Assembly: GCA_958295675.1 (NCBI GenBank)
Contig: OY282360.1
Coordinates: 261,466 to 325,465 of the forward strand
Direction of reading: 5' to 3'
Source: Minisyncoccota bacterium
GTDB lineage: Bacteria; Patescibacteriota; Minisyncoccia; Phycocordibacterales; JABAAK01
Length of the DNA: 64,000 nucleotides
Both the position numbers and the translations under genes were made by a program. The notes beneath the pieces were generated by a model, which saw nothing but the letters and a program-made list of their open reading frames with translations, made no database searches and was not told where the DNA came from. Numbering within the stretch: the first letter of the stretch is position 1; the number at the start of each line of letters is the position of its first letter. Positions 4,386-43,330 of this stretch are shown piece after piece.

Positions 4386-5000
4386 TTATGCTAAGACGAA
4401 TTGAACAACAAAAGACAAACAGAGGATAATCAGATAGACGGCGAGGAAAAAGGGAAGAACACACCGGATATTCTTTCTATACAACAGTTGCCGGTCAATG
4501 CGCGGCGGACTGCCGTGCATGTTCGCTTCTTTCGCGCCCGGTACACGCAGCAGCACTAAGATAAATACGATACTTAATAAAGAGAAAACAACGCTGATCG
4601 CGAACAGCCACCAGAACCACTCACCCGTGTCAGGAGCAAACCATTCCACCAAGGCGAGTATGACATTCAGCCAGGAAACAGCGAGGAGCGCGGCAAGCCA
4701 TCCGGACCACCCGATGTCATGCAGCCGCCGTACTGTGAAAGGAATAAGAATGAGAAGCGGGATGAGAATCGGAAAAAAGAAAAGAAAGTGAGACAGCAAC
4801 AGCAGCAACAGTTCGCTGAATACATATTCAAATTTCTCAGATAGGTACGCGGTATACAACGCAAAGTTTTCTGAAACGAACACAAACAGAGAGAGTGCAT
4901 AGAGTAAACAGAGAGGAGCGATACCCAGCAGTGCGGGCAGTAAGTACTCTTTTCTGCTGATCCGACCGCGGAACATGGTTGTAATGAAACGCATACACAT
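4386..5000 (-). CDS. DUF805-family inner membrane protein
   Basis: 'MFRGRISRKEY' N-terminus and 'RRLHDIGWSGW' motif typical of DUF805, with multiple TM helices. I chose the internal start at 5000 because the longer ORF listed to 5534 is antisense to the SMC gene. A TATAAT (revcomp of 5007-5012) sits 6 nt upstream of this ATG. Confidence 0.65.
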   Translation of the reverse strand: MCMRFITTMFRGRISRKEYLLPALLGIAPLCLLYALSLFVFVSENFALYTAYLSEKFEYVFSELLLLLLSHFLFFFPILIPLLILIPFTVRRLHDIGWSGWLAALLAVSWLNVILALVEWFAPDTGEWFWWLFAISVVFSLLSIVFILVLLRVPGAKEANMHGSPPRIDRQLLYRKNIRCVLPFFLAVYLIILCLSFVVQFVLA

Positions 5001-5006
5001 ACTAGT

Positions 5007-5012
5007 ATTATA
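5007..5012 (-). promoter_or_regulatory. -10 TATAAT (minus strand) 6 nt upstream of the DUF805 start
   Basis: Plus-strand 'attata' at 5007-5012 reads TATAAT on the minus strand. It is followed by 'actagt' and then the ATG. Confidence 0.3.
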
Positions 5013-5123
5013 GCGCATGCGGAGAGAGAGGCAGTTCAATAGCGCGACGGCGGTGTCAGGAATATATCCGTAGACGGAACGCAGCACCGCTATTTCGGCG
5101 CAAGTTTTTTCATAGAGAGATGC

Positions 5124-5129
5124 TACAAT
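5124..5129 (+). promoter_or_regulatory. -10-like TACAAT abutting the SMC-like gene start
   Basis: TACAAT overlaps the first ATG (5128). The second in-frame ATG at 5137 gives the canonical SMC start 'MYLKELQIEGFKSF' 7 nt downstream. Confidence 0.3.
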
Positions 5130-5136
5130 GGCGTGT

Positions 5137-10400: not shown

Positions 10401-13400
10401 GGTGCACACGATGACGATGGACGATACAACAACAGAGGTGCGGTCTACCTCTTTCAAAAAACAGACGGTGTATGGGCGAAGACCCTGAAGATCTCTGACA
10501 ATAGCGGCGGCGAGGGATTACTTAATATCGATTTGAGTAGAAGTGACGACTTCGGCTCAGCCGTCTCCTTCTCGGGAGACGGCACCGTACTGGCAGTAGG
10601 TGCGGATGGTGACGATGAAGGCGCGGTGTACCTCTTTCAAAAAACAAATGGCTCCTGGGCGAAGACCTTGAAGATCTCTGACAATGACGGCGGTGAGGGA
10701 TTACTGGATATCAATTTGAGCATATTTGACAACTTCGGCACCGCCGTATCTCTTTCCGCGGACGGCACCGCACTAGCGGTTGGTACGGGTGATAACATCA
10801 GTAGCAAAGGCGCGGTGTACCTCTTTCAAAAGACAAATGGCTCCTGGGCGAAGACCCTGAAGATCTCTGACAACGGCGGCGGCACAGAACTTTTGGATAT
10901 CAATTTGAGCGACAGTGACAGCTTCGGCTCCGCCGTCTCCTTCTCGGGAGACGGCACCGTACTGGCAGTAGGTGCGGATGGTGACGATGACGGCAACAAC
11001 AGCGACATAAATGCCAATAGAGGCGCGGTCTACACATTCGATGTCTCGCCGACTTCAACTACATCTGCGACTGTCACCGCCGTTGACACTGAAGACAGCA
11101 GCACCATGAAATATAAAAAGGTGAGTGGCACCGCCTGCACGGCGACACAGTTCGCAAGCGGTACAGGAACACCGTATGCCGAGAAGGATGCAATTACCGT
11201 CACCAGTGAAACAGATAATAACAAACGGTTTTGTTTCAGGTCGGAAGACGGAGTAGGGAATATCGGTTACGGTATCTCCGCGACAATTGCCGGTATAGAC
11301 ACCACCGCACCGACACTTATTGCTTTCAAAATAGGCACCGGCAGTACCGCGACCTATAAAGTCAGTGCCACGGACAACTCACCCGTCACCGGCAAGACCA
11401 AGGATAATATCGCAGCAGGCAGCTGTACCGACACGACCACAACCGACAACACCTGGACCAGTTACACCCCCGGAACAGAATCCGTCACAGCACACGATGA
11501 CAACGGCAGGTGCATCATTGTTATTGACGCGGCAGGGAACAAGAAAGCACAGCACCTATCGGATAGTGATAACAGCTATCAGACACCGTCCGCAGCGGTG
11601 ACCGGCATAAATTTGCAGGACGGCTCTGATACCGGAGCGGATAATGACAATATCACCTCCGACACCACCGCGCCGGTGATTGAATTTACAGCAACCGCAA
11701 GTGCCACGACAACCGGACGGTGGAGAAAACAGGACGGAGAGTGGAGTTCAACAACCGCCACCACCAATAGCGGCACTGTCACCACCACCCGAACCTACAC
11801 CCTCCCAAACCTGACAGGCGGTGACGGTGTATATGAGGTGGAGATAACACAAACTGAATCGGGGGAACCGGCAAACCCAACACTCTACACATTCACATTG
11901 GACACGAAAGCACCTACCGTGATACCTTTCACTGTCGCTCCCACTCCGGGCGACATTAACTACCTTGGTATTGACGACAGTATCACAGCCTCATTTCTCT
12001 TTAATGAGTCTATGGCAGTGTCACCGGTACTTACCGGAAAGTTCATCAACGACGAGACGGATATTCCAGCATCAGGAGGCAATCATCACACCATCACCGC
12101 CGTTCGCTACGACGCGACGACACAAACCCTCACACTTACCGTCAGGGATGCGGGACCTGATGTCGCCGTGGGTAACTTAAAGTATCAGATTACCAACGGC
12201 GCAGCAATCACTGACATAGCGGGCAACGCTCTCGGTACGCAGACCCGCACGATGTCTATCGACGATACGGCAATAGATACGACAAAACCCATACTCACCT
12301 CCACCAGAGTGGGTACCAGCAGCACCGCAACCTACATAGTCACCGCCACGGACACCTCACCCGTCACCGGAAAAACAAAAGACAATGTCATCTTGACAAA
12401 CTGTACTGACACCACAACCACCGATAACACATGGACATATTACACATCTGGAGAATATACCGGCACGGCAGACAACACCAATGGCAGATGTGTTATCATC
12501 ACGGACGCGGCAGGAAACAAGAAAGCACAGCATCTCTCAGACAGTGATAACACTGTGACGAGTGTTCCTATACTGACACTTGATCTCACCTCCGACACCG
12601 GCACTGACACCACCGACGACCATACAAGCGACACTACACCAGAGTTTACAGTGACCGGATCAACCGCGTACGGCGGTTCCGCGAACAACGAAGTACGCCT
12701 CTATCATAAGAACACCGCCTGCGGTACCCTCCCGACCGACATCACGACAATCACTGCACTCACCGGATGGACACTCTACAAAACAACCGCTACCTCCGCT
12801 ACCTCTTCCACTACCACAACCGGTATCACCTCCCAAACCGCGCTGACCACCACCGACGACCACTGTTTCCTTGCCATCTACTCAACCGACGGCTCAGCGA
12901 TAACACGATACGGACAACTTGATGTCGTCATAGACATCACTGCACCGACAGTCATCCCACACATCTCACCGTCGCTGCCGTCAGGCACGCCGACGAAGTT
13001 CTCACGCGCCGGTGATGTTGCGGTACAATTGGATAGTGGTGACGAATTCGGCTCCGCCGTATCTCTCTCCGCGGATGGCACCCTCATGGCAGTTGGTGCG
13101 TCACACGATGATGGCACCGACAGCAACAGAGGTGCGGTCTACCTCTTTCAAAAAACAAATGGCTCCTGGGCGAAGACCCTGAAGATCTCTGACAATGACG
13201 GTAGTGAAGGATTGCTGGATATCAATTTGAGCAACGGTGACAACTTCGGCTCCGCCGTATCTCTCTCTGCGGACGGCACCATACTGGCAGTCGGTGCGGA
13301 TGGTGACGATGACGGTGCGGTGTACCTCTTTCAAAAAACAAATGGCTCCTGGGCAAAGACCCTGAAAATCTCTGACAATGGCGGTGGCGAGGGATTACTG

Positions 13401-16400
13401 GATATTGATTTGAGTGCAGGTATATTTGACAATAATTTCGGCTCCGCCGTATCTCTCTCTGCGGACGGCACCGCACTGGCGGTTGGTGCGGATGGTGACA
13501 ATAACAATGACGGTGCGGTCTACCTCTTTCAAAAATCAGGCAACACATGGGCAAAGACCCTGAAAATCTCACACACCGGTGATGTTGCGGTACCATTGGA
13601 TGATTGGGACTTCTTCGGTTCCGCCGTGTCTCTCTCTGCGGACGGCACCACACTGGCGGTTGGTGCGTCACGCGATGATGATGGCAACAACAGCAGCATA
13701 AATGCCAATAGAGGCGCGGTCTATCTCTTTCAAAAATCAGGCAATACCTGGGCAAAGACCTTAAAAATCTCCGACAACGGCGGCGGCACAGAACTTTTGG
13801 ATATCAATTTGAGCGACAGTGACAGCTTCGGCTCCGCCGTCTCCTTCTCGGGAGACGGCACCACACTGGCAGTGGGTGTGGATGGTGACAATGAAGGTGC
13901 GGTGTACCTCTTTCAAAAAACAAATGGCTCCTGGGCGAAGACCTTGAAGATCTCTGACAACGGCGGCGGTGAGGGATTATTGGATATTGATTTGAGCAAC
14001 TATGACAACTTTGGCACTGCCGTATCCCTTTCTGTTGACGGCACGCTGGTGGCAGTAGGTGCGGATGGCGATTATGAAGGTGCGGTCTACACATTCGATG
14101 TCTCGCCGACTTCAACTACATCTGCGACTGTCACCGCCGTTGACACTGAAGACAGCAGCACCATGAAATATAAAAAGGTGAGTGGCACCGCCTGCACAGC
14201 GACACAGTTCACGGGCGATACAGGAACACCATATACCGAAGGTGATGCGATTACCGTCACCAGTGAAACAGATAATAACAAACGGTTTTGTTTCAGGTCG
14301 GAAGACGGAGCGGGGAACATCGGTTACGGTATTTCTATCACTCCGAATATAGACACCACTGCCCCCACACTCACCCCCACCAAAGTAGGCATCGGCAATG
14401 CAGCGACCTACAAAGTCAGTGCCACGGATGTCTCACCACCCCTCACCGGTAGAACAAAAGACAATGTCGCCTTGGTCGACTGTACCGACAGCGCGGTAAC
14501 GACAACCTCTGCGGGCTGGTCGGATTACACTCCCGGAACAGACACCGGCACTGCCGATGACACCAACGGCAGGTGTGTCATCATCACGGACGCGGTGGGG
14601 AACAGCAAAGCCCAGCATCTCTCAGACAGTGATAATACGATAACGGGTGTTCCCGCACTGACACTTGATCTCACTTCCGACACCGGCGACACCACCGATG
14701 ACCATACAAGCGACACCACGCCCGCGTTCACGGTGACGGGATTAACCGCGTACGGCGGCTCCGCGAACAACGAAGTGCGTCTCTACCACAAGAACACTGC
14801 TTGCGGCATCCTCCCGACCGCCATCACGACTATCGCCGGTCTCACCGACTGGACACTCTATAAAACAACCGATGTCTCCGCCGCCTCTTCCACCACCACA
14901 ACCGGCATCACTTCAGGAACCGCGCTGACCACCACCGACGAGCACTGTTTCCTTGCTGTCTACTCAACCGACGGCTCGGCAATAACACGACACGGACAGC
15001 TTGATGTCGTTATAGACACCACCACGCCGACGGTCATCCCCCACATCATACCCTCCCTCCCGTCAGGCACGCCGACAAAGTTCTCGCATACCAGTGATGT
15101 CGCGGTGACACTAGATGATGATGACCGTTTCGGCAGTGCAGTTGCATTCTCTGCGGATGGCACCCTCATGGCGGTGGGTGCATACGGCGACGATGACGGC
15201 GGTACCGATAACAACAGCAATAGAGGTGCGGTGTACCTCTTTCAAAAAACAAATAGCTCCTGGGCGAAGACCCTAAAGATCTCTGACAATAACAACGGTT
15301 CAGGATTATTGGATATTGATTTGGATAATAGCGACCGTTTCGGCACTACCACCTCCCTTTCCGCTGACGGCACCATGCTGGCAGTGGGTGCGTACGGCGA
15401 CGATGACGGTGGCACCAACCGAGGCGCGATCTATCTCTTTCAAAAAACGGGCAATACCTGGGCGAAGACCTTAAAAATCTCCGACAACGCCGGTGGTTCA
15501 GGATTGTTGGATATCAATTTAAGTGATTATGACCGCTTCGGTCGCGCTGTCTCCCTTTCCGCCGACGGCACCATGCTGGTAGCGGGTTCGTACGGTGACG
15601 ATGACGGCGGTACCACGAGCGACCGTAACAGAGGTGCGGTCTATCTCTTTCAAAAAACAGGCGATACCTGGGCAAAGACCTTAAAAATATCCGACAACGG
15701 CGGCGGTGAGGGATTATTGGACATCAATTTGGACAACAATGATCGCTTCGGCGTCGCTGCCTCTCTTTCCGCCGACGGCACTATGTTGGCAGTGGGAGCA
15801 TACTATGATGACGATGGTCATGCAAGTGTTGACAGAGGCGCGGTCTACCTCTTTCAAAAAACAAACGGTACCTGGACGAAGACCCTGAAAATCTCCGACA
15901 ATGATGACAGTGAGGGATTATTGGACATCAATTTGGACAACAATGATGAATTCGGCAACGCCATCTCCTTTTCCGCAGACGGTACCATGCTGGCAGTGGG
16001 TGCACACGATGACGATGACGGTGGACAACACAATAACAGAGGCGCGGTCTACCTCTTTCAAAAAACAGGCGGTACATGGGCAAAGACCTTAAAAATCTCC
16101 GACAACGATGGCGGCAAAGAACTATTGGATATCAATTTGCGCAACCATGACTTCTTCGGCTCCGCCGTCTCCTTCTCGGGAGACGGAACCATGCTGGCGG
16201 TGGGAGCAGATCATAATGATGACGGTAGCAGTAACAGCTATGAGAGAGGCGCGGTCTACGCATTCAGCGTATCGCCGAAACTGACCGCTTCCGCGACGGT
16301 CACCGCCGTTGACACTGAGGACAGCAGCACGATGAAATATATGAAAACTACCGGCACCTCCTGTACATCCGCGCAGTTTGCGGGCGGCACAGGAACACCA

Positions 16401-17774
16401 TATACCGAAGGAGACGAGATTACCGTCGCCACTGAAGCGGACAACAACAAACGGTTTTGTTTTAAGTCGGAAGACGGAGCAGGGAATAGCAGTTACGGTA
16501 TCTCCGCCGTCCTGAACATAGACACCACTGCCCCCGTGCTCACCCCGATCAGAACGGGCACCGGCAGCACCGCGACCTACATAGTCACTGCCACGGATGT
16601 CTCACCGCCCCTCACCGGAAAAACAAGAGATAATATCGCCTCGGGAAGCTGCACCGACACCCTCTACACCTTCCTCACCAGTTACTTTTGGTCGGACTAC
16701 ACCCCCGGAACGAATGTTGGCACCGCAGACGACACCAACGGCAGGTGTGTCATCATCACGGATGCGGCAGGCAACAGCAAAGCCCAGCATCTCTCGGACA
16801 GCGACAACACGATTGAGAGCGACTTCACCCTGGACATCACCGGCAACGACACCGCCAACTATCTGGATGCCATTGTCCACTACTATTACGCGCAAAACCC
16901 GAGCGATGAGTCAGCGGGCGGTGCGGTCATGGCGAATTTCATCAATGCAAACGACTCACCGGCGAAGACAGGGACCCCGATCACCACGGCAACTATCTAC
17001 ACAACGATGCAGGATTCCGCCACGACGCGTGATTTCACCGGCAACGGCACGGCAAACTATCTGGATGCCATTGTTCACTACTACTACGCGCAGAACCCGC
17101 TCGATCAGTCAGCGGGCGGCGCAGTTATGGCGAACTTTATCAACGCGAACGACTCACCGGCGAAGACAGGGGTTCCGACCACCACGGAAGCTATCTACAC
17201 GCTGCTTCAAGGATTAGGGGGGAGATCGGGCGATTCTTCCGATAGAATCGCGGTTTCCACATCCGCCGTTATCCAGGACTTTTCGGATGGCAGTAACCAA
17301 AAACTCTATGAGTTTACCATTGCCGCGGATGATGCAGGTGATGTCTATCTCGGTCAGGTTGCCCTCACATTCACCGGTGCACACAGTAAGCTCGGCACGG
17401 TGAATATTCGTCGCGGAACATTAACCAGTTCGCCTGTGGTTGCTTCAGGATCTCCTGCTTCAGAACCTGTGAAATTCCCGTTCACCAATGTTGAGACCAT
17501 TGATTCCGGTGAATCGGTAACATTCTCAGTAACCGCTCCTGTGTCCGGTGTCGCTGACGACGAATCTATCACGATTGAGCTTGCTGCAGACAGTGAACCG
17601 ACTGCTGCGAATAAAGTTGGTCAGGAATTCACAGATGCGAAAGATGACTTCAACTTTGTCTGGTCGCCGAATTCGTTAGATAACGAAGGTGCGATAAGTA
17701 ACAACGCCGACTGGTTCTCCGGTTGGGCTGTCTTTGACGATGTTGAGGGCTGGACAAGTGACGAGGATAACTAA
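7401..17774 (+). CDS. Giant secreted surface protein G1 (3457 aa): signal peptide, acidic stalk with 2 cadherin-like domains, Ig-like domains, three FG-GAP beta-propeller modules, C-terminal tandem dockerin-like modules plus a unique 186-aa tail
   Basis: Uninterrupted 10.4-kb ORF with signal-like N-terminus 'MYITQNIFWSRATAWCVSIAMLFSVVGPATHAQ'. Cadherin-like units follow the pattern 'LSGLTVSxTNLNEPFDAETTxYTADVAN..VTV..TPTDD...EGENTVTITVTAxDGVTxQTYxLTxTR'. FG-GAP blades repeat as 'FGSAVSLSADGTxLAVGA..DDDG..RGAVYLFQKTNGSWAKTLKISD'. Confidence 0.85.
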   Translation: MYITQNIFWSRATAWCVSIAMLFSVVGPATHAQTQQEPPEQQAEAPPERVSDDDEEEEEPAEQEEEQEEDEEEEVVPTATLSGLTVSETNLNEPFDAETTAYTADVANTIETVTVSATPTDDTATVTYDPTDADTEEEGHQIALTEGENTVTAEDAAATQTYILTVTRAAEEEPVEEESEPEGDDATEPADDTTNEQADDEEEESNEDGEEEGEEENEEQEESEEEEEPVEQEEEEQEETITPPTLNGLTVSDTNLNEPFDAETTTYTVDVANDIENVTVTPTADDTMTVAFTDTTDTDTEEEGHQVALTVGENTVTITVTAQDGVTAQTYILTITRAAEESEHEDEEETEEEQETPEPTVEPAPEQSQPEAQRQQAQLPDDDTSDTQANPNGPLLIALKPSSDSHRHGTITAVTALPGSPTTGTVIRFTASASSLANTVDTDGSTAKTTAAANDMFQYNDTKWVFMGNGATTVGISSDVDGITNDDTPTFVVKSADGNTFGGGRDDEAFIAKHAGACSSVTIPNNSLNGLNRNHAEYIFRSRSGWTEIDSFDMDLDRGGYSAAASFELTSDELTAGKYCFIAFYTDNGRATANTSTGLTVTIDNSITTPSLSISSGTGTATPTVTVTNLENNAKVRLYTSSNCSTGTALGSGDTTVGASTRVNIDLTGRSVGDIFYAKHTDVAGNTACRSGVTNIPGLTLDLTSDTGTDTTDDHTSDTTPEFTVTGSTAYGGSANNEVRLYHKNTACGTLPPVTTIAGLTGWTLYKTTDVSASSVTSTAGITSGTALTTADEHCFLAVYSADGSAITRYGQLDVVIDTTAPTIIPHISPSLPSGTPTKFSHAGDVAVPLDDWEFFGSTVSLSADGTLMAVGASRDDDGGTDSNRGAVYLFQKTNGSWAKTLKISDNGGGEGLLDINLSDYDYFGSAVSFSGDGTVLAVGADGDDDGAVHLFQKTNGSWAKTLKISDNDGGEGLLDINLGDNDNFGSAVSLSADGTALAVGAHDDDGRYNNRGAVYLFQKTDGVWAKTLKISDNSGGEGLLNIDLSRSDDFGSAVSFSGDGTVLAVGADGDDEGAVYLFQKTNGSWAKTLKISDNDGGEGLLDINLSIFDNFGTAVSLSADGTALAVGTGDNISSKGAVYLFQKTNGSWAKTLKISDNGGGTELLDINLSDSDSFGSAVSFSGDGTVLAVGADGDDDGNNSDINANRGAVYTFDVSPTSTTSATVTAVDTEDSSTMKYKKVSGTACTATQFASGTGTPYAEKDAITVTSETDNNKRFCFRSEDGVGNIGYGISATIAGIDTTAPTLIAFKIGTGSTATYKVSATDNSPVTGKTKDNIAAGSCTDTTTTDNTWTSYTPGTESVTAHDDNGRCIIVIDAAGNKKAQHLSDSDNSYQTPSAAVTGINLQDGSDTGADNDNITSDTTAPVIEFTATASATTTGRWRKQDGEWSSTTATTNSGTVTTTRTYTLPNLTGGDGVYEVEITQTESGEPANPTLYTFTLDTKAPTVIPFTVAPTPGDINYLGIDDSITASFLFNESMAVSPVLTGKFINDETDIPASGGNHHTITAVRYDATTQTLTLTVRDAGPDVAVGNLKYQITNGAAITDIAGNALGTQTRTMSIDDTAIDTTKPILTSTRVGTSSTATYIVTATDTSPVTGKTKDNVILTNCTDTTTTDNTWTYYTSGEYTGTADNTNGRCVIITDAAGNKKAQHLSDSDNTVTSVPILTLDLTSDTGTDTTDDHTSDTTPEFTVTGSTAYGGSANNEVRLYHKNTACGTLPTDITTITALTGWTLYKTTATSATSSTTTTGITSQTALTTTDDHCFLAIYSTDGSAITRYGQLDVVIDITAPTVIPHISPSLPSGTPTKFSRAGDVAVQLDSGDEFGSAVSLSADGTLMAVGASHDDGTDSNRGAVYLFQKTNGSWAKTLKISDNDGSEGLLDINLSNGDNFGSAVSLSADGTILAVGADGDDDGAVYLFQKTNGSWAKTLKISDNGGGEGLLDIDLSAGIFDNNFGSAVSLSADGTALAVGADGDNNNDGAVYLFQKSGNTWAKTLKISHTGDVAVPLDDWDFFGSAVSLSADGTTLAVGASRDDDGNNSSINANRGAVYLFQKSGNTWAKTLKISDNGGGTELLDINLSDSDSFGSAVSFSGDGTTLAVGVDGDNEGAVYLFQKTNGSWAKTLKISDNGGGEGLLDIDLSNYDNFGTAVSLSVDGTLVAVGADGDYEGAVYTFDVSPTSTTSATVTAVDTEDSSTMKYKKVSGTACTATQFTGDTGTPYTEGDAITVTSETDNNKRFCFRSEDGAGNIGYGISITPNIDTTAPTLTPTKVGIGNAATYKVSATDVSPPLTGRTKDNVALVDCTDSAVTTTSAGWSDYTPGTDTGTADDTNGRCVIITDAVGNSKAQHLSDSDNTITGVPALTLDLTSDTGDTTDDHTSDTTPAFTVTGLTAYGGSANNEVRLYHKNTACGILPTAITTIAGLTDWTLYKTTDVSAASSTTTTGITSGTALTTTDEHCFLAVYSTDGSAITRHGQLDVVIDTTTPTVIPHIIPSLPSGTPTKFSHTSDVAVTLDDDDRFGSAVAFSADGTLMAVGAYGDDDGGTDNNSNRGAVYLFQKTNSSWAKTLKISDNNNGSGLLDIDLDNSDRFGTTTSLSADGTMLAVGAYGDDDGGTNRGAIYLFQKTGNTWAKTLKISDNAGGSGLLDINLSDYDRFGRAVSLSADGTMLVAGSYGDDDGGTTSDRNRGAVYLFQKTGDTWAKTLKISDNGGGEGLLDINLDNNDRFGVAASLSADGTMLAVGAYYDDDGHASVDRGAVYLFQKTNGTWTKTLKISDNDDSEGLLDINLDNNDEFGNAISFSADGTMLAVGAHDDDDGGQHNNRGAVYLFQKTGGTWAKTLKISDNDGGKELLDINLRNHDFFGSAVSFSGDGTMLAVGADHNDDGSSNSYERGAVYAFSVSPKLTASATVTAVDTEDSSTMKYMKTTGTSCTSAQFAGGTGTPYTEGDEITVATEADNNKRFCFKSEDGAGNSSYGISAVLNIDTTAPVLTPIRTGTGSTATYIVTATDVSPPLTGKTRDNIASGSCTDTLYTFLTSYFWSDYTPGTNVGTADDTNGRCVIITDAAGNSKAQHLSDSDNTIESDFTLDITGNDTANYLDAIVHYYYAQNPSDESAGGAVMANFINANDSPAKTGTPITTATIYTTMQDSATTRDFTGNGTANYLDAIVHYYYAQNPLDQSAGGAVMANFINANDSPAKTGVPTTTEAIYTLLQGLGGRSGDSSDRIAVSTSAVIQDFSDGSNQKLYEFTIAADDAGDVYLGQVALTFTGAHSKLGTVNIRRGTLTSSPVVASGSPASEPVKFPFTNVETIDSGESVTFSVTAPVSGVADDESITIELAADSEPTAANKVGQEFTDAKDDFNFVWSPNSLDNEGAISNNADWFSGWAVFDDVEGWTSDEDN
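7626..7904 (+). repeat. Cadherin-like beta-sandwich domain 1 of G1 (carries a 5-codon in-frame deletion relative to paralogous units)
   Basis: 'ENTVTAEDAAATQTY' here versus 'ENTVTITVTAEDGVTVQTY' in the other copies. Confidence 0.6.
8127..8411 (+). repeat. Cadherin-like beta-sandwich domain 2 of G1
   Basis: Same about 95-aa unit flanked by poly-Glu/Asp linkers. Confidence 0.6.
9930..11045 (+). repeat. FG-GAP beta-propeller module A of G1 (about 7 blades, near-identical at nt level)
   Basis: Tandem about 180-bp units contain 'ggcgcggtctacctctttcaaaaaacaaatggctcctgggcgaagaccctgaagatctctgacaatg'. Confidence 0.65.
12990..14100 (+). repeat. FG-GAP beta-propeller module B of G1 (about 9 blades, with an internal restart of the propeller-start motif)
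   Basis: The propeller-start motif 'AGDVAV(P/Q)LD..FGSAVSLSADG' appears at 13000 and again at 13570 ('HTGDVAVPLDDWDFFGS'). Confidence 0.6.
15090..16265 (+). repeat. FG-GAP beta-propeller module C of G1
   Basis: Blades 'RFGxAxSLSADGTMLAVGAYGDDDGG..RGAVYLFQKTG.TWAKTLKISDN', more diverged than modules A and B. Confidence 0.6.
16821..17211 (+). other. C-terminal tandem dockerin-like calcium-loop modules (2 x about 62 aa) of G1
   Basis: 'DITGNDTANYLDAIVHYYYAQNP..AGGAVMANFINANDSP' occurs twice. 'D-x-T-G-N-G-T-x-N-Y-L-D-x-x-x-x-x-Y' aligns to the dockerin F-hand loop/helix 'D-V-N-G-D-G-x-V-N-x-x-D-x-x-x-L-x-x-Y'. The module is conserved at the C-terminus of G1-G6. Confidence 0.5.
17212..17771 (+). 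other. Unique 186-aa C-terminal extension of G1 ending '...NADWFSGWAVFDDVEGWTSDEDN'
   Basis: Present only in G1. A 60-bp relic of its end survives untranslated downstream of G2 (22330-22427). Confidence 0.5.
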
Positions 17775-18094: not shown

Positions 18095-18181
18095 CAGGGA
18101 GGTAGGATTATCCACCTCCAATACATGATGTGATAATATAACAAGTATACTACCCATGTGTACAGCACAGGTATAGGTAGT
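18095..18181 (+). promoter_or_regulatory. Conserved promoter/5'-leader cassette upstream of G2 (degenerate copy)
   Basis: 'taggattatccacc...gataatataacaagtatactacccatgtgtacagcacaggtataggtagt' then ATG. Homologous to the cassettes at 23125, 34478, 37381 and 43331. Confidence 0.5.
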
Positions 18182-21100
18182 ATGTATATAACTAAAAAAT
18201 TCTTTCTCACACGATGTATCGCACTGTGGGTGATACTCGCGCTGATGGTAACACTCATTCCGACCGCTCCGTATGCGGTCGGTCAGGAAGAAAAGAAACC
18301 TGATGGGGGGGGTACGACAGATACACCGCAGGAAACACCGAATCAACAGCAGGCAGAAGCGCCACCGGAGCGTGTGTCGGACGATGATGAAGAGCAGGAA
18401 GAACCTGCAGAGCAAGAGGAGAGTGAGGAAGAGGAAACACCGGCACCAACGCTCAGCAATCTCACGGTCTCGGACACCAATCTTAACGAGCCGTTTGACG
18501 CGGAGACAACTGCCTACACCGCCGATGTGGCGCATACTAGTGAAACAGTAACAATCAGCGCGACACCGACGGACGACACCATGACCGTCACCTACGATCC
18601 GACCGATGCCGACACGGAAGAAGAAGGACAGCAGGTCAATCTAACAGAAGGAGAGAACACCGTAACGATAACAGTAACAGCAGAGGACGGGGTAACGGTG
18701 CAGACCTACACCCTAACGATCACCAGAGCGGCGGAAGAGCCGAGTGAACCCGAGGATAGTGAAGAAGAGGAAGAAGAATCTGTAGGGGGAGAAAATGAGG
18801 AAACAGAGGAAGAGGAAGAAACACCGGAACCGACTGCAGAACCGGCACCGGAACAACCGCAGCCACAAGCACAACAGCAACAGCAGGTACAACTTCCTGA
18901 TGATGACGACACCGCGGGCACGCAGGCATACACAGCACCGACAGGCGCGCTGACCCTTGACCTGAAAACCGACAGTGACAGCGGATCAAGTACCACGGAC
19001 GACATCACCAAAAACACCTCACTCACCTTCACTGTTTCAAGCGGTGCGAATTTTGGCGGTACGGATAGTAGCAATGCCAGTACAGTGGGTATGATTTATA
19101 AAAATGAAGGTTGCAGCAGCGGGACAGCGATACCGGCAGATGGCACGAATTGGGGACATTCGAGCAACAATAATGGTTTCCATAATGATTTGCCCGTTGC
19201 ATGGAGAAACAGCGCGACGAAAGAATCTACAGGTACCCCGGCAACAAGTTTTGATGTAACATTTGATATAGCAGGGAAGCCGTGGGGATCTTCCAGTCTC
19301 ACAGTGCCAACGGTTACGGACGGCGTGAAATGCTTCATCGCCGCGTTTTTTGCCGGCGATACCGCAACTGTGTCCAGCAGTAACACCAGTGCCGGTCTTG
19401 AGGTAACCATAGACACAACGGCGACTACCCCGTCACTCAGCATATCCTCCGGTGCCGGCTCCGAGGCACCAGTCGTCGCCATTACCAACCTTGAGAGTAA
19501 CGGCAAGGTGCGTCTCTACACCGATAGCGACTGCAGCGCAAGCAACGCGCTCGGCAGCGACGACACCTCGGTGGGAGCGTCAACGACCACCGCGAGTATC
19601 ACCCTGAGCGGACGGTCTGCCAGTGATACTTTTTACGCGAAGCACACCGATGTCGCGGGCAACACGGCCTGCAGCAGCAGCGGGGTATCAAATGTTTCCG
19701 TGCTGACACTTGATCTCACTTCCGACACCGGCGACACCACCGACGACCGCACCTCCGACACCACACCCGCGTTCACGGTGACGGGAGAAACCGCGTATGG
19801 CGGCTCCGCGAGCAACGAAGTACGCCTCTACCACAAGAACACCGCCTGCGGCATCCTCCCGACCGACATCACGACCACCACCGGTCTCACTGACTGGACA
19901 CTTTACAAAACAACCGATGTCTCCGCCTCCCCCGCCGTTACCACCACAACTGGCATCACCTCCGACACCGCGCTGACCACCACCGACGAACACTGCTTCC
20001 TCGCTGTCTACTCATCCGACGGCTCGGCGATAACCCGATACGGACAGTTGGATGTCGTTATAGACACCACCGCACCGACAATCATCCCCCGTGTCGCGCC
20101 GTCCTATCCGTCAGGCACACCGACCAAGTTCTCGCACGCCGGTGATGTCGCGGTGACATTGGATAATCGTGACTTCTTCGGCTCCGCCACCGCTCTCTCA
20201 GCGGACGGCACGCTGATGGCGGTGGGGGTACTGAGCGACGATGACGGCGGCAGCGACAGAGGCGCGGTGCACCTCTTTGAAAAAACAGATGCCACATGGA
20301 CGAAAACCCTGAAAATCTCCGACAACAACGGCGGCACAGAACTTTTGGATATCAATTTGGATAACAGTGACGCTTTCGGCACCACCGTCTCCCTCTCAGC
20401 GGACGGCACCCTGCTGGCGGTGGGGGCAGATAGTGACGACGACGGCGGCGGCGGCAACAAAGGCGCGGTCTATCTCTTTGAAAAAACAAGCACCGGGTGG
20501 GCGAAGACCTTGAAGATCTCTGACAATGCCAACACTGCAGGACTCTTGGATATCAATTTGGATACCGGTGACCGGTTCGGCAGCGCCGCTGCTCTCTCGG
20601 CAGACGGCACCGCACTGGCAGTGGGGGCGATCTACGACGATGACGGCGGCAGAAATGCCGACCGAGGCGCGGTCTATCTCTTTGAAAAAACAAGCACCGG
20701 GTGGGCGAAAACCCTAAAAATCTCTGACAACGACGGCGGCACAGAACTTTTGGATATCAATTTGGATGATGATGACGACTTTGGCATATCGGTTGCGCTC
20801 TCCGCGGACGGCACCGCACTTGCCGTCGGTGCGAAGTCAGACGATGACGGTGAAGCCGTCATAATCAGAAGAGGAAGAGGAAGAACAATATATGATACCG
20901 ATACCGACCGAGGCGCGGTCTATCTCTTTGAGAAATCAGACGGTACCTGGGCGAAGACCCTGAAAATCTCCGACAACGACGGCGGGAGTGCGGGACTCTT
21001 GGATATCAATTTGGACGTCGGTGATCTCTTCGGCAACGCCGTCTCCCTTGTGGCGGATGGCACCCTGCTGGCGGTGGGGGCACAGGACGACGATGATAAC

Positions 21101-22270
21101 GGCAGAGGCAAAGGCGCGGTCTACCTCTTTCAAAAATCAGACACCGCATGGGCGAAGACCCTGAAAATCTCCGACAACAACGGCGGAAGTGCGGGACTCT
21201 TGGACATCAATTTGACCACTATTGACCGGTTCGGCTCCGGCGTCTCCCTTGCCGCGGACGGTACCGCACTGGCGGTGGGTGCGAGAAATGATAGCAGTAC
21301 CAAAGGCGCGGTCTACGCGTTCAGCGTATCTCCGAAACTGACCGTTTCCGCGACTGTCACCGCCGTTGACACTGAGGACAGCAGCACGATGAAATATATG
21401 AAAACCACCGGCACCGCCTGCACAGCGACACAGTTCGCGGGCGGCACGGGAACACCGTATACCGAAGGAGACGAGATTACCGTCGCCACTGAAGCGGACA
21501 ACAACAAACACTTCTGCTTCAAGTCGGAAGACGGAGCAGGGAATAGCAGTTACGGTATCTCCGCCGTCCTGAACATAGACACCACCGCCCCCGTGCTCAC
21601 CCCGATTAGAACGGGTACCGACAACACCGCCACCTACATAGTCACCGCCGCCGACAACTCACCCCTCACCGGTGTAACAAAAGACAATGTCGCCTTGGCC
21701 GACTGTACCGACACGACCACGACCGACAACACCTGGACGAGTTACACCCCCGGAGACGACATCGGCACCGCGGACGACACCAACGGCAGGTGTGTCATCA
21801 TCACGGATGCGGCAGGCAACAGCAAAGCCCAGCACCTCTTAGACAGCGACAACACGATTCGAGCTGACTTCACCCTGGACATCACCGGCAACGGCACGGC
21901 AAACTACTTAGATGCCATTGTCCACTACTACTATGCGCAGAACCCGATCGATCAGTCAGCGGGCGGTGCCGTCATGGCGAATTTCATCAATGCGAACGAC
22001 TCGCCGACGAACACAGAGAACCAGACCGACACGGCAGCTATCTACACAACGATGCAGGATTCCGCCACAACGCGTGACTTCACCGGCAACGGCACCACCA
22101 ACTACTTGGACGCCATTGTCCACTACTACTATGCGCAGAACCCGATCGATCAGTCAGCGGGCGGCGCGGTCATGGCGAATTTCATCAATGCGAACGACTC
22201 ACCGACGAACACAGAAAACCAGACCAACACGGCGGCTATCTACACGCTGCTTCAGAATTTTGATCTGTGA
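18182..22270 (+). CDS. Giant secreted surface protein G2 (about 1362 aa): signal peptide, acidic stalk with 1 cadherin-like domain, Ig-like domains, one FG-GAP propeller module, C-terminal tandem dockerin-like modules
   Basis: I place the start at the second Met 'MYITKKFFLTRCIALWVILALMVTLIPTAPYAVGQ', which matches the other paralogs (the ORF track starts at 18158). The internal module at 19690-21550 is homologous to the G1 modules. Confidence 0.8.
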   Translation: MYITKKFFLTRCIALWVILALMVTLIPTAPYAVGQEEKKPDGGGTTDTPQETPNQQQAEAPPERVSDDDEEQEEPAEQEESEEEETPAPTLSNLTVSDTNLNEPFDAETTAYTADVAHTSETVTISATPTDDTMTVTYDPTDADTEEEGQQVNLTEGENTVTITVTAEDGVTVQTYTLTITRAAEEPSEPEDSEEEEEESVGGENEETEEEEETPEPTAEPAPEQPQPQAQQQQQVQLPDDDDTAGTQAYTAPTGALTLDLKTDSDSGSSTTDDITKNTSLTFTVSSGANFGGTDSSNASTVGMIYKNEGCSSGTAIPADGTNWGHSSNNNGFHNDLPVAWRNSATKESTGTPATSFDVTFDIAGKPWGSSSLTVPTVTDGVKCFIAAFFAGDTATVSSSNTSAGLEVTIDTTATTPSLSISSGAGSEAPVVAITNLESNGKVRLYTDSDCSASNALGSDDTSVGASTTTASITLSGRSASDTFYAKHTDVAGNTACSSSGVSNVSVLTLDLTSDTGDTTDDRTSDTTPAFTVTGETAYGGSASNEVRLYHKNTACGILPTDITTTTGLTDWTLYKTTDVSASPAVTTTTGITSDTALTTTDEHCFLAVYSSDGSAITRYGQLDVVIDTTAPTIIPRVAPSYPSGTPTKFSHAGDVAVTLDNRDFFGSATALSADGTLMAVGVLSDDDGGSDRGAVHLFEKTDATWTKTLKISDNNGGTELLDINLDNSDAFGTTVSLSADGTLLAVGADSDDDGGGGNKGAVYLFEKTSTGWAKTLKISDNANTAGLLDINLDTGDRFGSAAALSADGTALAVGAIYDDDGGRNADRGAVYLFEKTSTGWAKTLKISDNDGGTELLDINLDDDDDFGISVALSADGTALAVGAKSDDDGEAVIIRRGRGRTIYDTDTDRGAVYLFEKSDGTWAKTLKISDNDGGSAGLLDINLDVGDLFGNAVSLVADGTLLAVGAQDDDDNGRGKGAVYLFQKSDTAWAKTLKISDNNGGSAGLLDINLTTIDRFGSGVSLAADGTALAVGARNDSSTKGAVYAFSVSPKLTVSATVTAVDTEDSSTMKYMKTTGTACTATQFAGGTGTPYTEGDEITVATEADNNKHFCFKSEDGAGNSSYGISAVLNIDTTAPVLTPIRTGTDNTATYIVTAADNSPLTGVTKDNVALADCTDTTTTDNTWTSYTPGDDIGTADDTNGRCVIITDAAGNSKAQHLLDSDNTIRADFTLDITGNGTANYLDAIVHYYYAQNPIDQSAGGAVMANFINANDSPTNTENQTDTAAIYTTMQDSATTRDFTGNGTTNYLDAIVHYYYAQNPIDQSAGGAVMANFINANDSPTNTENQTNTAAIYTLLQNFDL
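20141..21330 (+). repeat. FG-GAP beta-propeller module of G2
   Basis: Blades 'FGxxxxLSADGTxLAVGAxxDDDG..(R/K)GAVYLFEKTSTGWAKTLKISDN'. Confidence 0.6.
21865..22267 (+). other. C-terminal tandem dockerin-like modules of G2
   Basis: 'DFTLDITGNGTANYLDAIVHYYYAQNPIDQSAGGAVMANFINANDSPTNTENQT' occurs twice and ends 'LLQNFDL*'. Confidence 0.5.
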
Positions 22271-22500
22271 GGAGATGCGAAACGGATGCACCGCGCCGCG
22301 GTAAATCAGAAGAACATTGAGCGGCTGTTGCAGAATGCTGATTGGGCTGTCTTTAACGACGATGATGTTGAGGACCGGACAAGCGACGAGGATAACCAAA
22401 GCGCAGTGAGTCCTGTCGGTGCCGAGGATCGTTGACATATACACATGATGTGTTGTTTGTACATACACACATGTTATTCTATTACCATACAATACATGAC

Positions 22501-22644
22501 ATGGAAGAGTATAGTATTTATCAGATGATAGTAGTTGGTGTGATAATAGGCGGGGCAATGGGTGTGGGCTTGCTTATCCGACGGATGAGAGCAAAAATGA
22601 TAAAAAAATTACTTACGCACTTGAGAAAGAATATACTGAGATAA
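22501..22644 (+). CDS. Small conserved single-TM protein (47 aa), copy 2
   Basis: 'MEEYSIYQMIVVGVIIGGAMGVGLLIRRMRAKMIKKLLTHLRKNILR'. The C-terminal half is nearly identical at nt level to copy 1. Confidence 0.4.
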   Translation: MEEYSIYQMIVVGVIIGGAMGVGLLIRRMRAKMIKKLLTHLRKNILR

Positions 22645-22678
22645 TTGAACAGGTGCGCAGTGTTAAGAAAAAAAAGCA

Positions 22679-23124: not shown

Positions 23125-23200
23125 GTAAGATTGTCCACCTGTAATAAATAATGCGATAATATAACAAGTACACTGCCTATGTGTACAGCACAGGTATAGT
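23125..23200 (+). promoter_or_regulatory. Conserved promoter/5'-leader cassette upstream of G3: TTGTCC(23131-36)-N18-GATAAT(23155-60), leader hairpin GTACAC-tgcctat-GTGTAC (23168-23186), SD AGGT (23192-95)
   Basis: 'taagattgtccacctgtaataaataatgcgataatataacaagtacactgcctatgtgtacagcacaggtatagt' then ATG. Present in five copies. Confidence 0.5.
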
Positions 23201-26200
23201 ATGTATATACATAAAAAAATATTTCTCACACGATGTATCGCACTCTGGGTAATACTCGCGCTGATGGTAACACTCGTCCCAACCGCTCCGTATGCCGTCG
23301 GTCAGGAAGCAAAGAAACCTGATGGGGGGGGTACGACAGATACACCGCAGGAAGCACCGGAGCAACAGGCGGAAGCACCGCCGGAGCGTGTGTCGGACGG
23401 TGATGAAGAGCAGGAGGAGAGTGAGGAAGAGGAAACACCGGCACCAACACTCATCGGTCTCACGGTCTCAGGAACCGATCTTAACGAAACATTTGATTCT
23501 GCCGTAACAACCTACACCGCCGATGTGGCACATGACAGCGAAACAGTAACAATCAGCGCGACACCGATGGACGATACGGCAACTGTGGCATTTACTGATA
23601 CAACGGATGCCGACACGGAAGAAGACGGACACCAAGTCAATCTCACGGAAGGGGAAAATACGGTAACAATAACAGTAACAGCGCAGGACGGAGTAACTAC
23701 ACAAACTTACACCCTGACAGTGACCAGAGCTGCTGAAGAAGAACCTACAGAGGAAGAAGAACAAGAAGAGGCGGATGAAAACGAAGAGCAAGAGGATGAA
23801 GAAGAGACAGGAGAAGAAACACCGGCACCAACACTCAGCGGTCTCACGGTTTCGGATACCGATCTCAATGAACCGTTTGATGCGGAGACAACTGCATATA
23901 CCGCCGATGTGGCGCATGACAGCGAAACCGTCACAATCAGCGCGACATCAACAGACAACACCGCGACCGTCACCTACGATCCGACCGATGCCGACACGGA
24001 AGAAGAGGGACAGCAGGTCAATCTCACGGAAGGGGAAAACACGGTAACGATAACAGTGACGGCGGAAGACACAACACAAACCTATACACTCACCATCACC
24101 AGAGCTGCGGAAGAAGAACAAGAGGATGAAGAAGAGACAGGAGAAGAAACACCGGAGCCGACTACAGAACCGGCACTGGAACAACCACAAGCACAGCAGC
24201 AACAGCAGGTACAACTTCCCGACGATGACGATACCTCGGATACGCAGGGTGCTCCATCAGGTCCGTTGATACTGGTTTTAAAAACATCGTCCGATTCACA
24301 CCGCCACGGCACCATCACGACGGTAACGGCACTCCCCGGATCGCCGACAAGCGGCGCGGTGATTCGATTCACCGAGTCGGCGTCATCGCTGGCGAACACG
24401 GTAGACACTGACGGCAGCACCGCGAAAACAACCGCGGCGGCAAACGATATGTTCCGGTACAACGGCACCAAATGGGTCTTTATGGGAAACGGCGTCACCA
24501 CGGCGGGCATCAGTTCGGATGTTGACGGGATTACGAGCGACGACACGCCGACTTTTAATGTCAGTAATTCGGCGACATTCAATTCGAACGATGGGAGTTT
24601 AGAAGAAGCGTCGTTCCTGATGAAAAAAGATCAGGGGTGCGCGGGGCTGTCAAAACCGTCAGGGGATTATATTCCTATTACCCGTACGCAGAGGTGGTCG
24701 CATATATTCACAGAAAGATCTATGACTAATTCATATGACGCGCTCATTGGGACGCAGAATGCCGGGATGAAATGTCTCAGTGTGGGATGGGTAACACACG
24801 GGCAGAACACCAGTAACTGGAGTGAATTACTTGAGGTGACGATAGACACCGGGGCGACCACACCGACAGTCGCTATCACCTCCGGTGCCGGCACAGGCAA
24901 CCCGACGGTGCGGGTGAGCGGTCTTGAATCGGGTGGTGCGGTGGCGCAGCTGTTTAGTGACTCGGGGTGCGGCACGGCAATCAGTGGTGTGTCATCACGC
25001 ACCGGCGCGTCTGAGACCTCCAAAGACCTGACCACAACCACAATCGTCGCCGCGGGTGCGAGCATCTACGCGAAGCAGACGGATGTGGCAGGCAATGGTT
25101 CCGCGTGCAGCGACGCGGTGCTCAACGCGGTGCCATCCGCCGCGGTGAGCGGTATTGATTTAAAAACAGGCAGCGACACCGGCACACAGGACGATAGCAT
25201 CACCAGCGATACCACAGCACCGGCACTAGGGTTCACACAGGTGTCAGGCGCGACCATTACCGTCCGCTACCGCAAGGTGGGAGGGTCGTGGACAACGATA
25301 CAATCAGGAAGTATCACGGCAACAGGAGCTGCGGGTACGATAACCTTACCGAATCTCACGGCGGGTGACGGGACATACGAGGTGGAGATAACGCAGGATG
25401 ATGACGGCAACGGCGCGAGGAGTCCGACAGCGGCGACCTACATATTCACGCTGGATACCACCGCGCCGACCGTTATCGTGAGCAGCACGCCGGCACTGCC
25501 GTCAGGCACTCCGACGAAGTTCTCGCAAACCGGCGGGGTCACAATCACATTGGAGAACGAGGACAAATTCGGCACCGCTACCTCTCTCTCGGCGGACGGC
25601 ATGCTGATGGCGGTGGGGGTACCAAATGACGATGACAAGGCAGGCGACAGTAGCGGCAACGACAGGGGCGCGGTGTATCTCTTTCAAAAATCAGGTGCCA
25701 CCTGGCAGAAGATACACAAGTTCTCCGACCACACCGGCAGCGGAGTGACCGGAACCCGGTTCACCACGGCAGTGACGGATGTTAATCTGAGCAACAGTGA
25801 CCATTTCGGCTCCGGTGTCTCGCTCTCCGCGGACGGCACGCTGCTGGCGGTTGGTGCGAGAGGTGATGGCACGGGTGCGGTCTACCTTTTTAAAAAATCA
25901 AGCACCACATGGCAAAAAATACACAAGTTCTCAAATCACACTACAAGCACGGAACCGGCGGTTCGTTTCACGGCGGCGATAACGGATGTTGATATAGGGG
26001 GTAGTGGCTGGTTTGGCACCGCAGTCTCCCTCTCGGCGAGCGGTGAAGTGCTGGCGGTTGGCGCGCGCGATGACGGCTCCTCTTCTAGAGGTGCGGTCTA
26101 CCTCTTTGAAAAAACAGACGGCAGCTGGTCGCAATCACTGAAAATATCCGATAACAATGGCGGGGCGGGATTGTTGGATATCACCCTGGATGCCCGTGAC

Positions 26201-33697: not shown

Positions 33698-33904
33698 ATG
33701 AAAAACAAACTGCACACACTTATAAACGGTCTGAAAAATAAATTTCGCGGTCATAAGAATAACCGACCGGCAGCATCCGATGAAACACCAACGAATAACG
33801 GCAGCACACTCAGTCAGGAGGAAGCAAACAGAAGGATTGATAAAGCCGCGAAAGTAACCGTTGAACGATACGGTCATATCATTGAACGCCTCTCAAAAGA
33901 GTAG
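33698..33904 (+). CDS. Candidate antitoxin / small upstream partner of the Doc toxin (68 aa)
   Basis: Its stop TAG is separated by 1 nt from the Doc ATG (TAGtATG translational coupling). No family motif recognised. Confidence 0.3.
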   Translation: MKNKLHTLINGLKNKFRGHKNNRPAASDETPTNNGSTLSQEEANRRIDKAAKVTVERYGHIIERLSKE

Positions 33905-33905
33905 T

Positions 33906-34477: not shown

Positions 34478-34555
34478 AAAATTGTCCACCTGTAATAAAT
34501 AATGCGATAATATAACAAGTACACTGTCTATGTGTACAGCACAAGTATAGTTAGT
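34478..34555 (+). promoter_or_regulatory. Conserved promoter/5'-leader cassette upstream of G4
   Basis: 'aaaattgtccacctgtaataaataatgcgataatataacaagtacactgtctatgtgtacagcacaagtatagttagt' then ATG. Confidence 0.5.
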
Positions 34556-43254: not shown

Positions 43255-43330
43255 TTGTAGTGCCGGAAAAGACGATCGGGCAGTACACCTTGGCGGGGAG
43301 GTGGGGAAGAGTAGCACTGTCTCGGGATAG

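Follow-up and report, generated by a model that had tools for sequence, protein, structure and literature searches.

The six giant, adhesin-like paralogs G1–G6 encoded in the window, by which we mean the whole 64,000-nucleotide stretch analysed here, share a previously undescribed C-terminal module, an orphan domain composed of two tandem units of 57–66 aa. Its copies are under strong purifying selection and repeat far beyond chance. No test identifies the module as a dockerin, and homology with dockerins is not detectable from sequence. We tentatively favour, at a little under an even chance, the interpretation that it is a lineage-restricted, all-alpha tandem domain, probably calcium-stabilised, through which all members are held by one shared receptor of the cell envelope.

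The carrier genes span positions 7401–54583 on the + strand (G1, 7401–17774; G2, 18158–22270; G3, 23201–33574; G4, 34532–37360; G5, 37453–43254; G6, 43409–54583), and all module features given below lie on the same strand. Each gene encodes a Sec-type signal peptide at the N-terminus and acidic linkers, and Cadherin-like, FG-GAP_2, Big_13, fn3 and GLUG domains were found among the six; outside the signal peptide region, the module is the one element that all of them share. By translation and motif scan the tandem pair could be located in all six coordinate ranges named in the preliminary description, which gives 12 copies in total, two tandem units at the C-terminus of each protein, and a scan of all six frames of the 64-kb window returned no 13th copy. 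In G1, unit r1 (66 aa) occupies 16821–17018 and unit r2 17019–17216, with the r2 loop at 17031–17066. As described before, the G1 pair precedes an extra tail, a G1-specific extension of 185 aa reaching to the stop codon (17217–17774), which matched no recognised family and is absent in relatives; a remnant of it lies downstream of G2. The pairs of G2 (21866–22270; r1 21866–22063, r2 22064–22261), G3 (33170–33574; r1 33170–33367, r2 33368–33565), G4 (36956–37360; r1 36956–37153, r2 37154–37351) and G6 (54179–54583; r1 54179–54376, r2 54377–54574) are each completed by 2 residues and a stop codon, while in G5 (42856–43254; r1 42856–43053, r2 43054–43251) the stop follows directly. The module end of the protein reads ...LLQNFDL, without a hydrophobic stretch, and neither a C-terminal TM segment nor LPXTG nor a known sorting domain was found there in the sequence or with NCBIfam models. 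The unit period in the window is exactly 66 aa (198 nt) and not the ~62 aa first estimated; likewise the two loops, thought to lie about 40 aa apart, are separated by 54 aa from the end of loop 1 to the start of loop 2, their starts being 66 aa apart. The upstream neighbour is an Ig-like domain in G1, G2, G5 and G6 and a GLUG-type domain in G3 and G4. Since the copies remain C-terminal after two different upstream domain types, the module can be considered shuffled.

Conservation is distributed unevenly along the unit. The 12 units are 73–98% identical in protein, with 38 of the 66 columns invariant, and divergence among the copies amounts to a synonymous pS of 0.34 and a non-synonymous pN of 0.073. 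In G1 r1, the loop covers aa 5–16 (16833–16868) and is followed by an invariant helix-1 segment (aa 17–27, 16869–16901), a conserved middle (aa 28–45, 16902–16955), a variable linker (aa 46–56, 16956–16988) and the last helix (aa 57–66, 16989–17018), where helix-1 segment, middle and linker were distinguished by segment-wise pN/pS and helices were assigned by carrying over the model of a relative's module together with the hydrophobic moment. The core, comprising loop, first helix and middle segment, has a pN/pS of 0.06, and the 11 residues after the loop show no amino-acid change at all at a local pS of 0.40; the 11-residue linker reaches a pN/pS of ~1. In line with the initial proposal, the whole family carries a strongly constrained C-terminal module, the appearance expected of a shared element for display or anchoring. 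Nucleotide identity is higher between the two units of one gene (0.843) than between units from different genes (0.794), the observed value being reached in 2 of 720 permutations, which is compatible with two equivalent binding faces.

Each unit contains a 12-residue loop with oxygen-donor residues at position 1 (D), 3 (T/S), 5 (N/D), 9 (N/D/G) and 12 (D), with Gly at position 6, A/T/V at position 8 and Ala at position 13. The loop string quoted in the preliminary description, opening with D-I-T-G-N-G, holds for most copies, with exceptions in G1 r1 (D-I-T-G-N-D) and G4 r1 (D-I-T-S-N-G). Loop and following helix fit the pattern of EF-hand/dockerin-type calcium loops twice per module, Thr/Ser at position 3 being atypical. 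We infer that the loop binds calcium, with the reservation that position 3 is T/S and not D/N and position 8 is A/T/V and not I/L/V. The post-loop segment has its hydrophobic-moment maximum at 100 degrees, the periodicity of an alpha-helix. AlphaFold2 gave an unusable model for the window's own sequence (pLDDT 35.7); for a relative's pair it returned six helices, three per unit (pLDDT of the helices ~70–75, pTM 0.52), with loops at pLDDT <50 and no entering helix abutting the loop. On this model each loop is predicted to reside within its own three-helix unit, and a helical-wheel reading predicts that the conserved His/Tyr of the post-loop helix are exposed.

Among 1.84 billion protein representatives, the module matched only the protein family of G1–G6 and their relatives. 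These relatives, from metagenome contigs of ENA sample ERZ19489113, have several giant genes at syntenic loci that terminate in a module of ~39% identity, in which the motif D-x-[TS]-G-[DN]-G-x-x-x-x-x-D-A-I-x-H-Y-x-Y is kept. Their loop starts are 57 aa apart and the pair measures ~118 aa, vs 132 aa in the window. D1 and D12 are invariant in the 12 window copies and in at least 10 copies from relatives, and the residues invariant with relatives included are D1, D12, A13, I14, H16, Y17 and Y19.

We propose a model in which each unit, after Sec export of the protein, would fold around a Ca2+ ion held in the EF-hand/DxDxDG-type loop (D-x-[TS]-G-[DN]-G-x-x-[NDG]-x-x-D). The loop would lead directly into an amphipathic helix with the invariant D-A-I-x-H-Y-x-Y, followed by a short second helix around G..M..F and a third helix. 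The exposed, conserved His/Tyr patch beside the loop, shown twice per module, would then bind one common envelope receptor, possibly a protein or a wall glycopolymer, and so retain the six otherwise anchorless paralogs on the cell surface. The module would thereby work like a dockerin, SLH or PG-binding tail while being a member of none of these families. Both the tethering role and the receptor are conclusions drawn indirectly. Against tethering it should be noted that the analysis yielded no binding partner and no cohesin in the window, and that an uncleaved N-terminal signal peptide would itself be the anchor and place the module at the distal tip. The G1 module, moreover, is not terminal because the 185-aa tail follows, which also counts against tethering. 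A further, rather doubtful extension is that module and non-cohesin envelope receptor constitute an independently evolved 'plug-and-socket' display system for exchangeable giant adhesins in a small-genome, probably host-dependent bacterium; the pair would then be a functional analogue of cohesin–dockerin built from a different helical scaffold.

The same architecture could be read in the opposite orientation, with the module as a distal ligand-binding, host-binding or self-association element, built as two three-helix bundles in the manner of protein A, GA, FIVAR or silk terminal domains, on the outer tip of fibres that an uncleaved N-terminal signal anchor holds in place. The N-terminal hydrophobic segment of G1–G6, followed by long acidic spacers able to span the wall, would suit such fibres, as would the further domain tolerated after the module in G1. 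We nevertheless regard this orientation as unlikely, since the module is invariant over six paralogs with differing middles, as expected of a housekeeping role such as anchoring and not of diversified ligand recognition, and since the A-x-G motif ahead of QEE is compatible with signal peptide cleavage, judged by sequence only.

Among the closest known counterparts of the module is the type I dockerin (PF00404; C. thermocellum CelS, PDB 2MTE/1DAQ), which is likewise C-terminal on secreted multidomain proteins and internally duplicated, has a 12-residue loop with D1/D12, oxygen donors at 3, 5 and 9 and a directly following helix but no entering helix (F-hand), and keeps its two copies alike. From the F-hand match put forward in the preliminary description, the loop donors 1, 3, 5, 9 and 12 with the subsequent helix stand, while homology with dockerins is unsupported by profile scores. 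The best Dockerin_1 score is 10.1 bits (E 0.97) against a gathering score of 22.9 bits, and it covers profile positions 3–23 of 57 with one loop, in the G2-type pair only; relatives' pairs gave no Dockerin_1 match at E up to 10. Against a dockerin profile whose PDB retrievals are exclusively cohesin-binding dockerin modules (30 PDB dockerin sequences), the module scores −3.4 bits, less than other DxNGDG loops of the proteins that carry it, and hhalign against this PDB-validated profile yields a probability of 1.6% over 14 columns. A PDB profile search with hmmsearch ranked 4UYQ_B (ScaB dockerin) as the best dockerin, with the loop only and E 0.67, and the tandem-pair profile found no dockerin in the PDB; nor did the predicted fold yield a significant similarity to dockerins. 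The layout differs as well: dockerins have a 22-aa duplicated segment in a ~60–70 aa module, in contrast to units of 57–66 aa with three predicted helices, and the CelS loops (residues 7–18 and 39–50) start 32 aa apart, in contrast to 66 aa in the window and 57 aa in relatives, so that the compact dockerin layout is absent. The CelS inter-loop gap is accordingly 20 aa and not the ~10 aa previously assumed for classical dockerins. In the module, T/S replaces N/D at position 3, and its helix conserves H-Y-x-Y where dockerins have an L-K-R-Y-type pattern.

That the module is nonetheless a true but highly divergent dockerin, both F-hand loops forming one expanded dockerin whose cohesin, on a scaffold or anchor protein, is encoded elsewhere in the genome, appears improbable; this is the reading of the preliminary description. 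The F-hand pattern of loop and helix with invariant D1/D12 speaks for it, as does the near-identical internal duplication, reminiscent of dual-binding dockerins, and dockerins are the only PDB or Pfam families touched by the loop (Dockerin_1 at 10 bits, 4UYQ at E 0.67). These scores, however, are all far under significance and cover only 14–15 residues, relatives lack any Dockerin_1 match, and the validated profile prefers the internal DxNGDG loops of the same proteins. In favour of a dockerin, Ruminococcus flavefaciens group 1 dockerins have a 37–45-aa inter-repeat linker and group 2 a single repeat (PMC2930009), so that the spacing of the module is by itself not outside dockerin variation and cannot mark a new variant, as had been suggested. 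Yet R. flavefaciens dockerins (5LXV, 5M2S) are retrieved by the dockerin profile that misses the module, and their linker is not a copy of the segment after the second repeat, unlike in the module, where the ~40 residues behind loop 2 and its helix are a repeat of those behind loop 1 and its helix, a stretch that dockerins do not have. Dockerin-like helices split by inserted sequence have also been reported from 'Dockerin-type' giant proteins of Omnitrophota (bioRxiv 10.1101/2023.11.21.568195). These resemble the present case in being giant proteins on the surface of uncultivated, ultra-small bacteria and in having separated dockerin-like helical elements. Their repeats, though, are internal, flank a CBM35-like barrel and are recognised by EF-hand/dockerin HMMs, whereas the module is a terminal pair that lacks an inserted beta domain and escapes such HMMs. 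A cohesin (PF00963) was found by protein domain searches in no protein of the window, as had been noted before, the window being 64 kb of a contig of at least 724 kb, nor does the listing for ~75 kb of related loci contain one.

Convergence offers a further argument against dockerin ancestry, as Dx[DN]xDG loops, which can bind Ca2+ in extracellular proteins, are often lineage-restricted and are known in a loop-then-helix context, among others, have at least 16 structural contexts in which they arose by convergence (PMC3123361). The module shares with this class a short Asp/Asn/Gly-rich loop with spacing and Gly kept, metal binding being only putative in the module, and departs from it in D-x-[TS]-G-[DN]-G, with a hydroxyl at position 3 rather than a carboxyl or amide; because position 3 is Thr/Ser, the strict D-x-[DN]-x-D-G motif is absent. 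Membership in the EF-hand clan (CL0220) was rejected in view of A/T/V at position 8, where the canonical loop has I/L/V, Ala at position 13, where it has a hydrophobic residue, and the lack of an abutting entering helix, and EF-hand profile searches reported no family at E up to 10 in window or relatives' pairs.

Least probable is a C-terminal sorting or secretion signal for a dedicated export or attachment machinery, perhaps removed afterwards and comparable in function to a T9SS CTD or an exosortase/sortase signal: its strictly C-terminal place across a secreted family and the lineage specificity common among sorting tags would agree, but no NCBIfam sorting domain matched even at E up to 10, the prediction is all-alpha and not a beta-sandwich, ...LLQNFDL is neither a hydrophobic nor a basic tail, N-terminal Sec signals are already there, the module is internal in G1 and no candidate machinery was seen in the window. 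The beta-rich sorting domain named earlier as a refuting outcome is not borne out.

For tethering, the wall-anchoring modules PG_binding_1 (PF01471), SLH and CWB2 provide a second comparison, as they too occupy the C-terminus of large surface proteins that are secreted, at similar size and in tandem copies, yet contain no calcium loop. PG_binding_1, likewise a three-helix unit of about 60 aa, holds the module's position (E 1.9e-13) at the C-terminus of G7 (56127–60329, + strand), a large secreted protein without the module whose 61% identical ortholog adjoins a module-bearing gene in the related locus L001. By analogy of position this would suit an anchoring role of the module, and more speculatively G7 could be a partner candidate. 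Membership of the module in PG_binding_1 was rejected, as there is no Pfam match and hhalign against the G7 domain gives a probability of 0.08% over 11 columns.

The binding target, once known, would reveal how giant adhesins are held or aimed by such cells, and the module, for example in tagged recombinant form, could serve to trace the receptor in a lineage that is uncultivated. With the module, a clean and strongly selected case of an EF-hand-like loop in a new helical setting is added, relevant to the question whether docking of the dockerin type has more than one evolutionary origin; should the loop not bind calcium, what is left is a new orphan domain at the C-terminus. Displaying giant proteins at the surface can be considered a major investment for this organism, since G1–G8 fill most of the 64-kb window on a contig of only ~0.72 Mb. 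G8 extends past the window edge, and the carrier genes G1–G6 sum to ~45 kb, roughly 6% of the 724-kb contig.

In this analysis, we examined the C-terminal regions of the six giant secreted paralogs of the window, which are encoded on the same strand by giant genes at 7401–17774 (G1), 18158–22270 (G2), 23201–33574 (G3), 34532–37360 (G4), 37453–43254 (G5) and 43409–54583 (G6). From translation of the gene ends, the tandem pair of the preliminary description could be confirmed as two head-to-tail units, r1 and r2, at the end of each gene, with unit boundaries agreeing to within a few bases. A motif scan in all six frames of the window returned exactly 12 copies of the unit, all of them at these ends. 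The tandem repeat as such therefore stands, while its geometry had to be corrected from a period of about 62 aa and a loop spacing of about 40 aa to a period of exactly 66 aa (198 nt) and a loop spacing of 54 aa. Identity among the 12 copies ranges from 73 to 98%, with 38 of 66 columns invariant, and only in G1 is the module not terminal, being followed by 185 more residues.

A word-indexed search with the window pair against 5.8 billion proteins gave no match, a mixed profile in the same type of search matched solely the frameshifted fragment P0010, and DNA-pattern scans for the module gave no match in 185,579 species genomes and the JGI metagenomes. When 1.84 billion cluster representatives were searched exhaustively with HMMER, nine matches resulted, four of which are window proteins or near-identical versions, three chance matches and two true relatives. 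P0007 (a cohesin-repeat protein), P0008 and P0009 were rejected as homologs, their matches being short, repeated and due to chance. The true relatives are P0005 and P0006, which are likewise giant and share the domain repertoire of the window proteins. The metagenome contigs of the relatives (L001–L003, ENA sample ERZ19489113) are syntenic with the window, featuring giant genes, a Fic gene and an ortholog of the neighbouring large gene G7, and several of their giant genes bear other variants of the pair. Pair identity between the two lineages is about 39%, with D1, D12, A13, I14, H16, Y17 and Y19 (loop numbering) and G33, M37 and F40 (unit numbering) invariant in both. The difference between r1 (DFTLDITG...) and r2 (...RDF[TS]GNG...) is common to both lineages, and the unit duplication is therefore older than their split. 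In these long-read contigs we additionally observed several giant genes split by frameshifts, including within the module itself (L001 7035–10315 and L003 28479–28827); the splits probably reflect errors made in sequencing or assembling repeats, and not pseudogenes. The window is part of a contig of 724,510 bp. A PurF scan of genomes gave no close relative, and among named organisms the best matches in a PurF protein search reach only about 41% identity (Proteobacteria), which marks the lineage as poorly sampled.

The loop consensus, D-[IF]-[TS]-G-[DN]-[G/D/T]-x-[ATV]-[NDG]-x-x-D, provides side-chain oxygen donors at positions 1, 3, 5, 9 and 12 and a Gly at position 6, which is the arrangement of EF-hands and dockerins; Thr/Ser at position 3 and the weak hydrophobic residue at position 8 are atypical. 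The hydrophobic moment peaks at 100 degrees in the segment following the loop, D-A-I-x-H-Y-x-Y-..., and at 80–90 degrees in the two later segments of the unit. AlphaFold2 returned a useless model for the window pair when the alignment held the six paralogs only (pLDDT 35.7), while for a relative's pair, with a 10-row alignment of both lineages, mean pLDDT reached 61.5 and pTM 0.52, and each unit of the model has three helices (six in all) at about 70–75, with both loops below 50. Hydrophobic moments and modelled helices together predict an all-alpha module. In a helical-wheel projection, residues I14, Y17, I/Y18 and V21 would be buried, and the invariant H16 and Y19 would be exposed beside the loop. 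The module is a new domain family of very narrow distribution, in which a known calcium-loop theme occurs in a new helical context.

Comparison of copies at the same position gave pS 0.34 and pN 0.073, with pN/pS varying strongly along the unit: 0.05 in the loop (aa 5–16), 0.00 at pS 0.40 in the 11 residues after it (aa 17–27), 0.09 in the middle segment (aa 28–45), 0.98 in the linker (aa 46–56) and 0.43 in the last helix (aa 57–66). Loop, first helix and middle segment are therefore under strong purifying selection, so that conservation of the module is due to selection and not to recent copying, while the linker drifts. Nucleotide identity is higher between units within one gene (0.843) than between units of different genes (0.794), a difference reached by 2 of 720 permutations, and the within-gene excess is larger in the linker (0.889 versus 0.76), which indicates intragenic homogenisation of the r1/r2 pairs.

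Apart from the signal-peptide region, the module is the only element common to all six paralogs, whose middles differ. The domain ahead of it is of two different kinds among its carriers, which begin with Sec-type N-termini and lack any other anchor, and in G7 a peptidoglycan-binding three-helix domain (PG_binding_1) sits at the module's position; homology of the module with PG_binding_1 was tested and rejected. We therefore favour, tentatively, a reading in which all six proteins would share one tethering or docking module that binds an envelope receptor non-covalently and is probably stabilised by Ca. A role in distal binding or self-association appears unlikely.

The preliminary description had read the module as dockerin-like; its calcium-loop-like motif with following helix and its presence as a common C-terminal module are upheld, but membership in the dockerins is not. 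For Pfam Dockerin_1, whose cutoff is 22.9 bits, the score is only 10.1 bits (E 0.97), reached over one loop and helix by the G2-type pair alone; the relatives' pairs give no match. The best dockerin in a PDB profile search, A. cellulolyticus ScaB (4UYQ_B), aligned over 15 loop residues (E 0.67, 13 bits), and the tandem-pair profile found no dockerin in the PDB. For direct comparison, a dockerin profile of four sequences was used, the first checked as CelS; from the PDB this profile recovers nothing but dockerins (30 sequences). Against this profile, hhalign gave the module a probability of 1.6% over 14 columns, covering the loop only, and the dockerin HMM with filters off scored it at -3.4 bits, lower than the unrelated internal DxNGDG loops of G4 and G5. 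The duplicated unit of dockerins is a 22-aa F-hand, whereas that of the module is a predicted three-helix element of 57–66 aa. Loops of the type Dx[DN]xDG are known from at least 16 structurally unrelated settings and are probably convergent (PMC3123361). The long loop spacing had been offered as a possible sign of a new variant. R. flavefaciens dockerins, however, already include forms with inter-repeat linkers of 37–45 aa and forms with a single repeat (PMC2930009), so that the distance between the loops does not by itself speak against a dockerin or amount to something new. No cohesin was found among the window proteins or in the related loci, and within these regions the supposed cohesin partner is not upheld. 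As judged from these comparisons, resemblance at the level of the loop is supported and dockerin membership is not, and a true divergent dockerin is quite improbable.

EF-hand-like loops are also found inside G3–G6, ahead of the GLUG regions, in the internal motif D-T-D-G-D-G-L-I-D-I-x-T-x-x-Q-L-N-A-I-R-x-D-L-x-G-[DN]-G (e.g. G4 aa 505–518 and G5 aa 616–634), and these outscore the C-terminal module with the dockerin profile.

A sorting signal is very improbable: NCBIfam sorting-domain models do not match the module, and its predicted all-alpha fold differs from the beta-rich sorting domain (e.g. a T9SS-type CTD) that the preliminary description had named as an outcome refuting its reading. 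A beta-propeller (PQQ 'Bagel' blade), prompted by a PDB match at E=0.26, was rejected, as only the 10-mer H-Y-x-Y-A-x-N-P, added up across repeated blades, is left of the match once the profile is made more diverse, the turn is absent in the relatives and the segment shows helical periodicity.

The tail of G1 after the module (17217–17774, 185 aa) has no family match and is absent in the relatives; in the public gene call P0004 it is out of frame after 'GDSS'. A remnant of its last part and of the downstream DNA, 84% identical, follows the G2 stop codon at 22342–22663, which suggests the loss of about 500 nt of tail from G2. A stretch of roughly 50 nt that directly precedes the start codon in G2 (18102–18157), G3 (23125–23180), G4 (34481–34525) and G6 (43330–43383) is 82–85% conserved and may represent a leader or promoter element common to the paralogs.

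G7 (56127–60329) is without the module and comprises an N-terminal region of about 300 aa without assignment, Big_13 and the C-terminal PG_binding_1. Its ortholog at L001 11253–14693 is 61% identical, adjoins a module-bearing gene and is without the PG_binding_1 part. The next large gene, G8, starts near 60556 and runs out of the window. Between G6 and G7, a full-length Fic_N+Fic protein is encoded at 54871–55941, with a counterpart of 59% identity at the same position in L002 (16004–17167). Between G3 and G4, a 68-aa ORF (33698–33904) is followed by a 160-aa ORF (33861–34343) whose product shows a weak Fic/Doc match (E 5e-4) and a DGNKR-type motif; the two are possibly a Phd/Doc-like toxin-antitoxin pair. 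Ahead of G1, a 720-aa SMC_N-family ORF (5128–7290) and an opposite-strand 382-aa DUF805 ORF (4386–5534) overlap by about 400 nt, and the start of one of them is probably mis-set.
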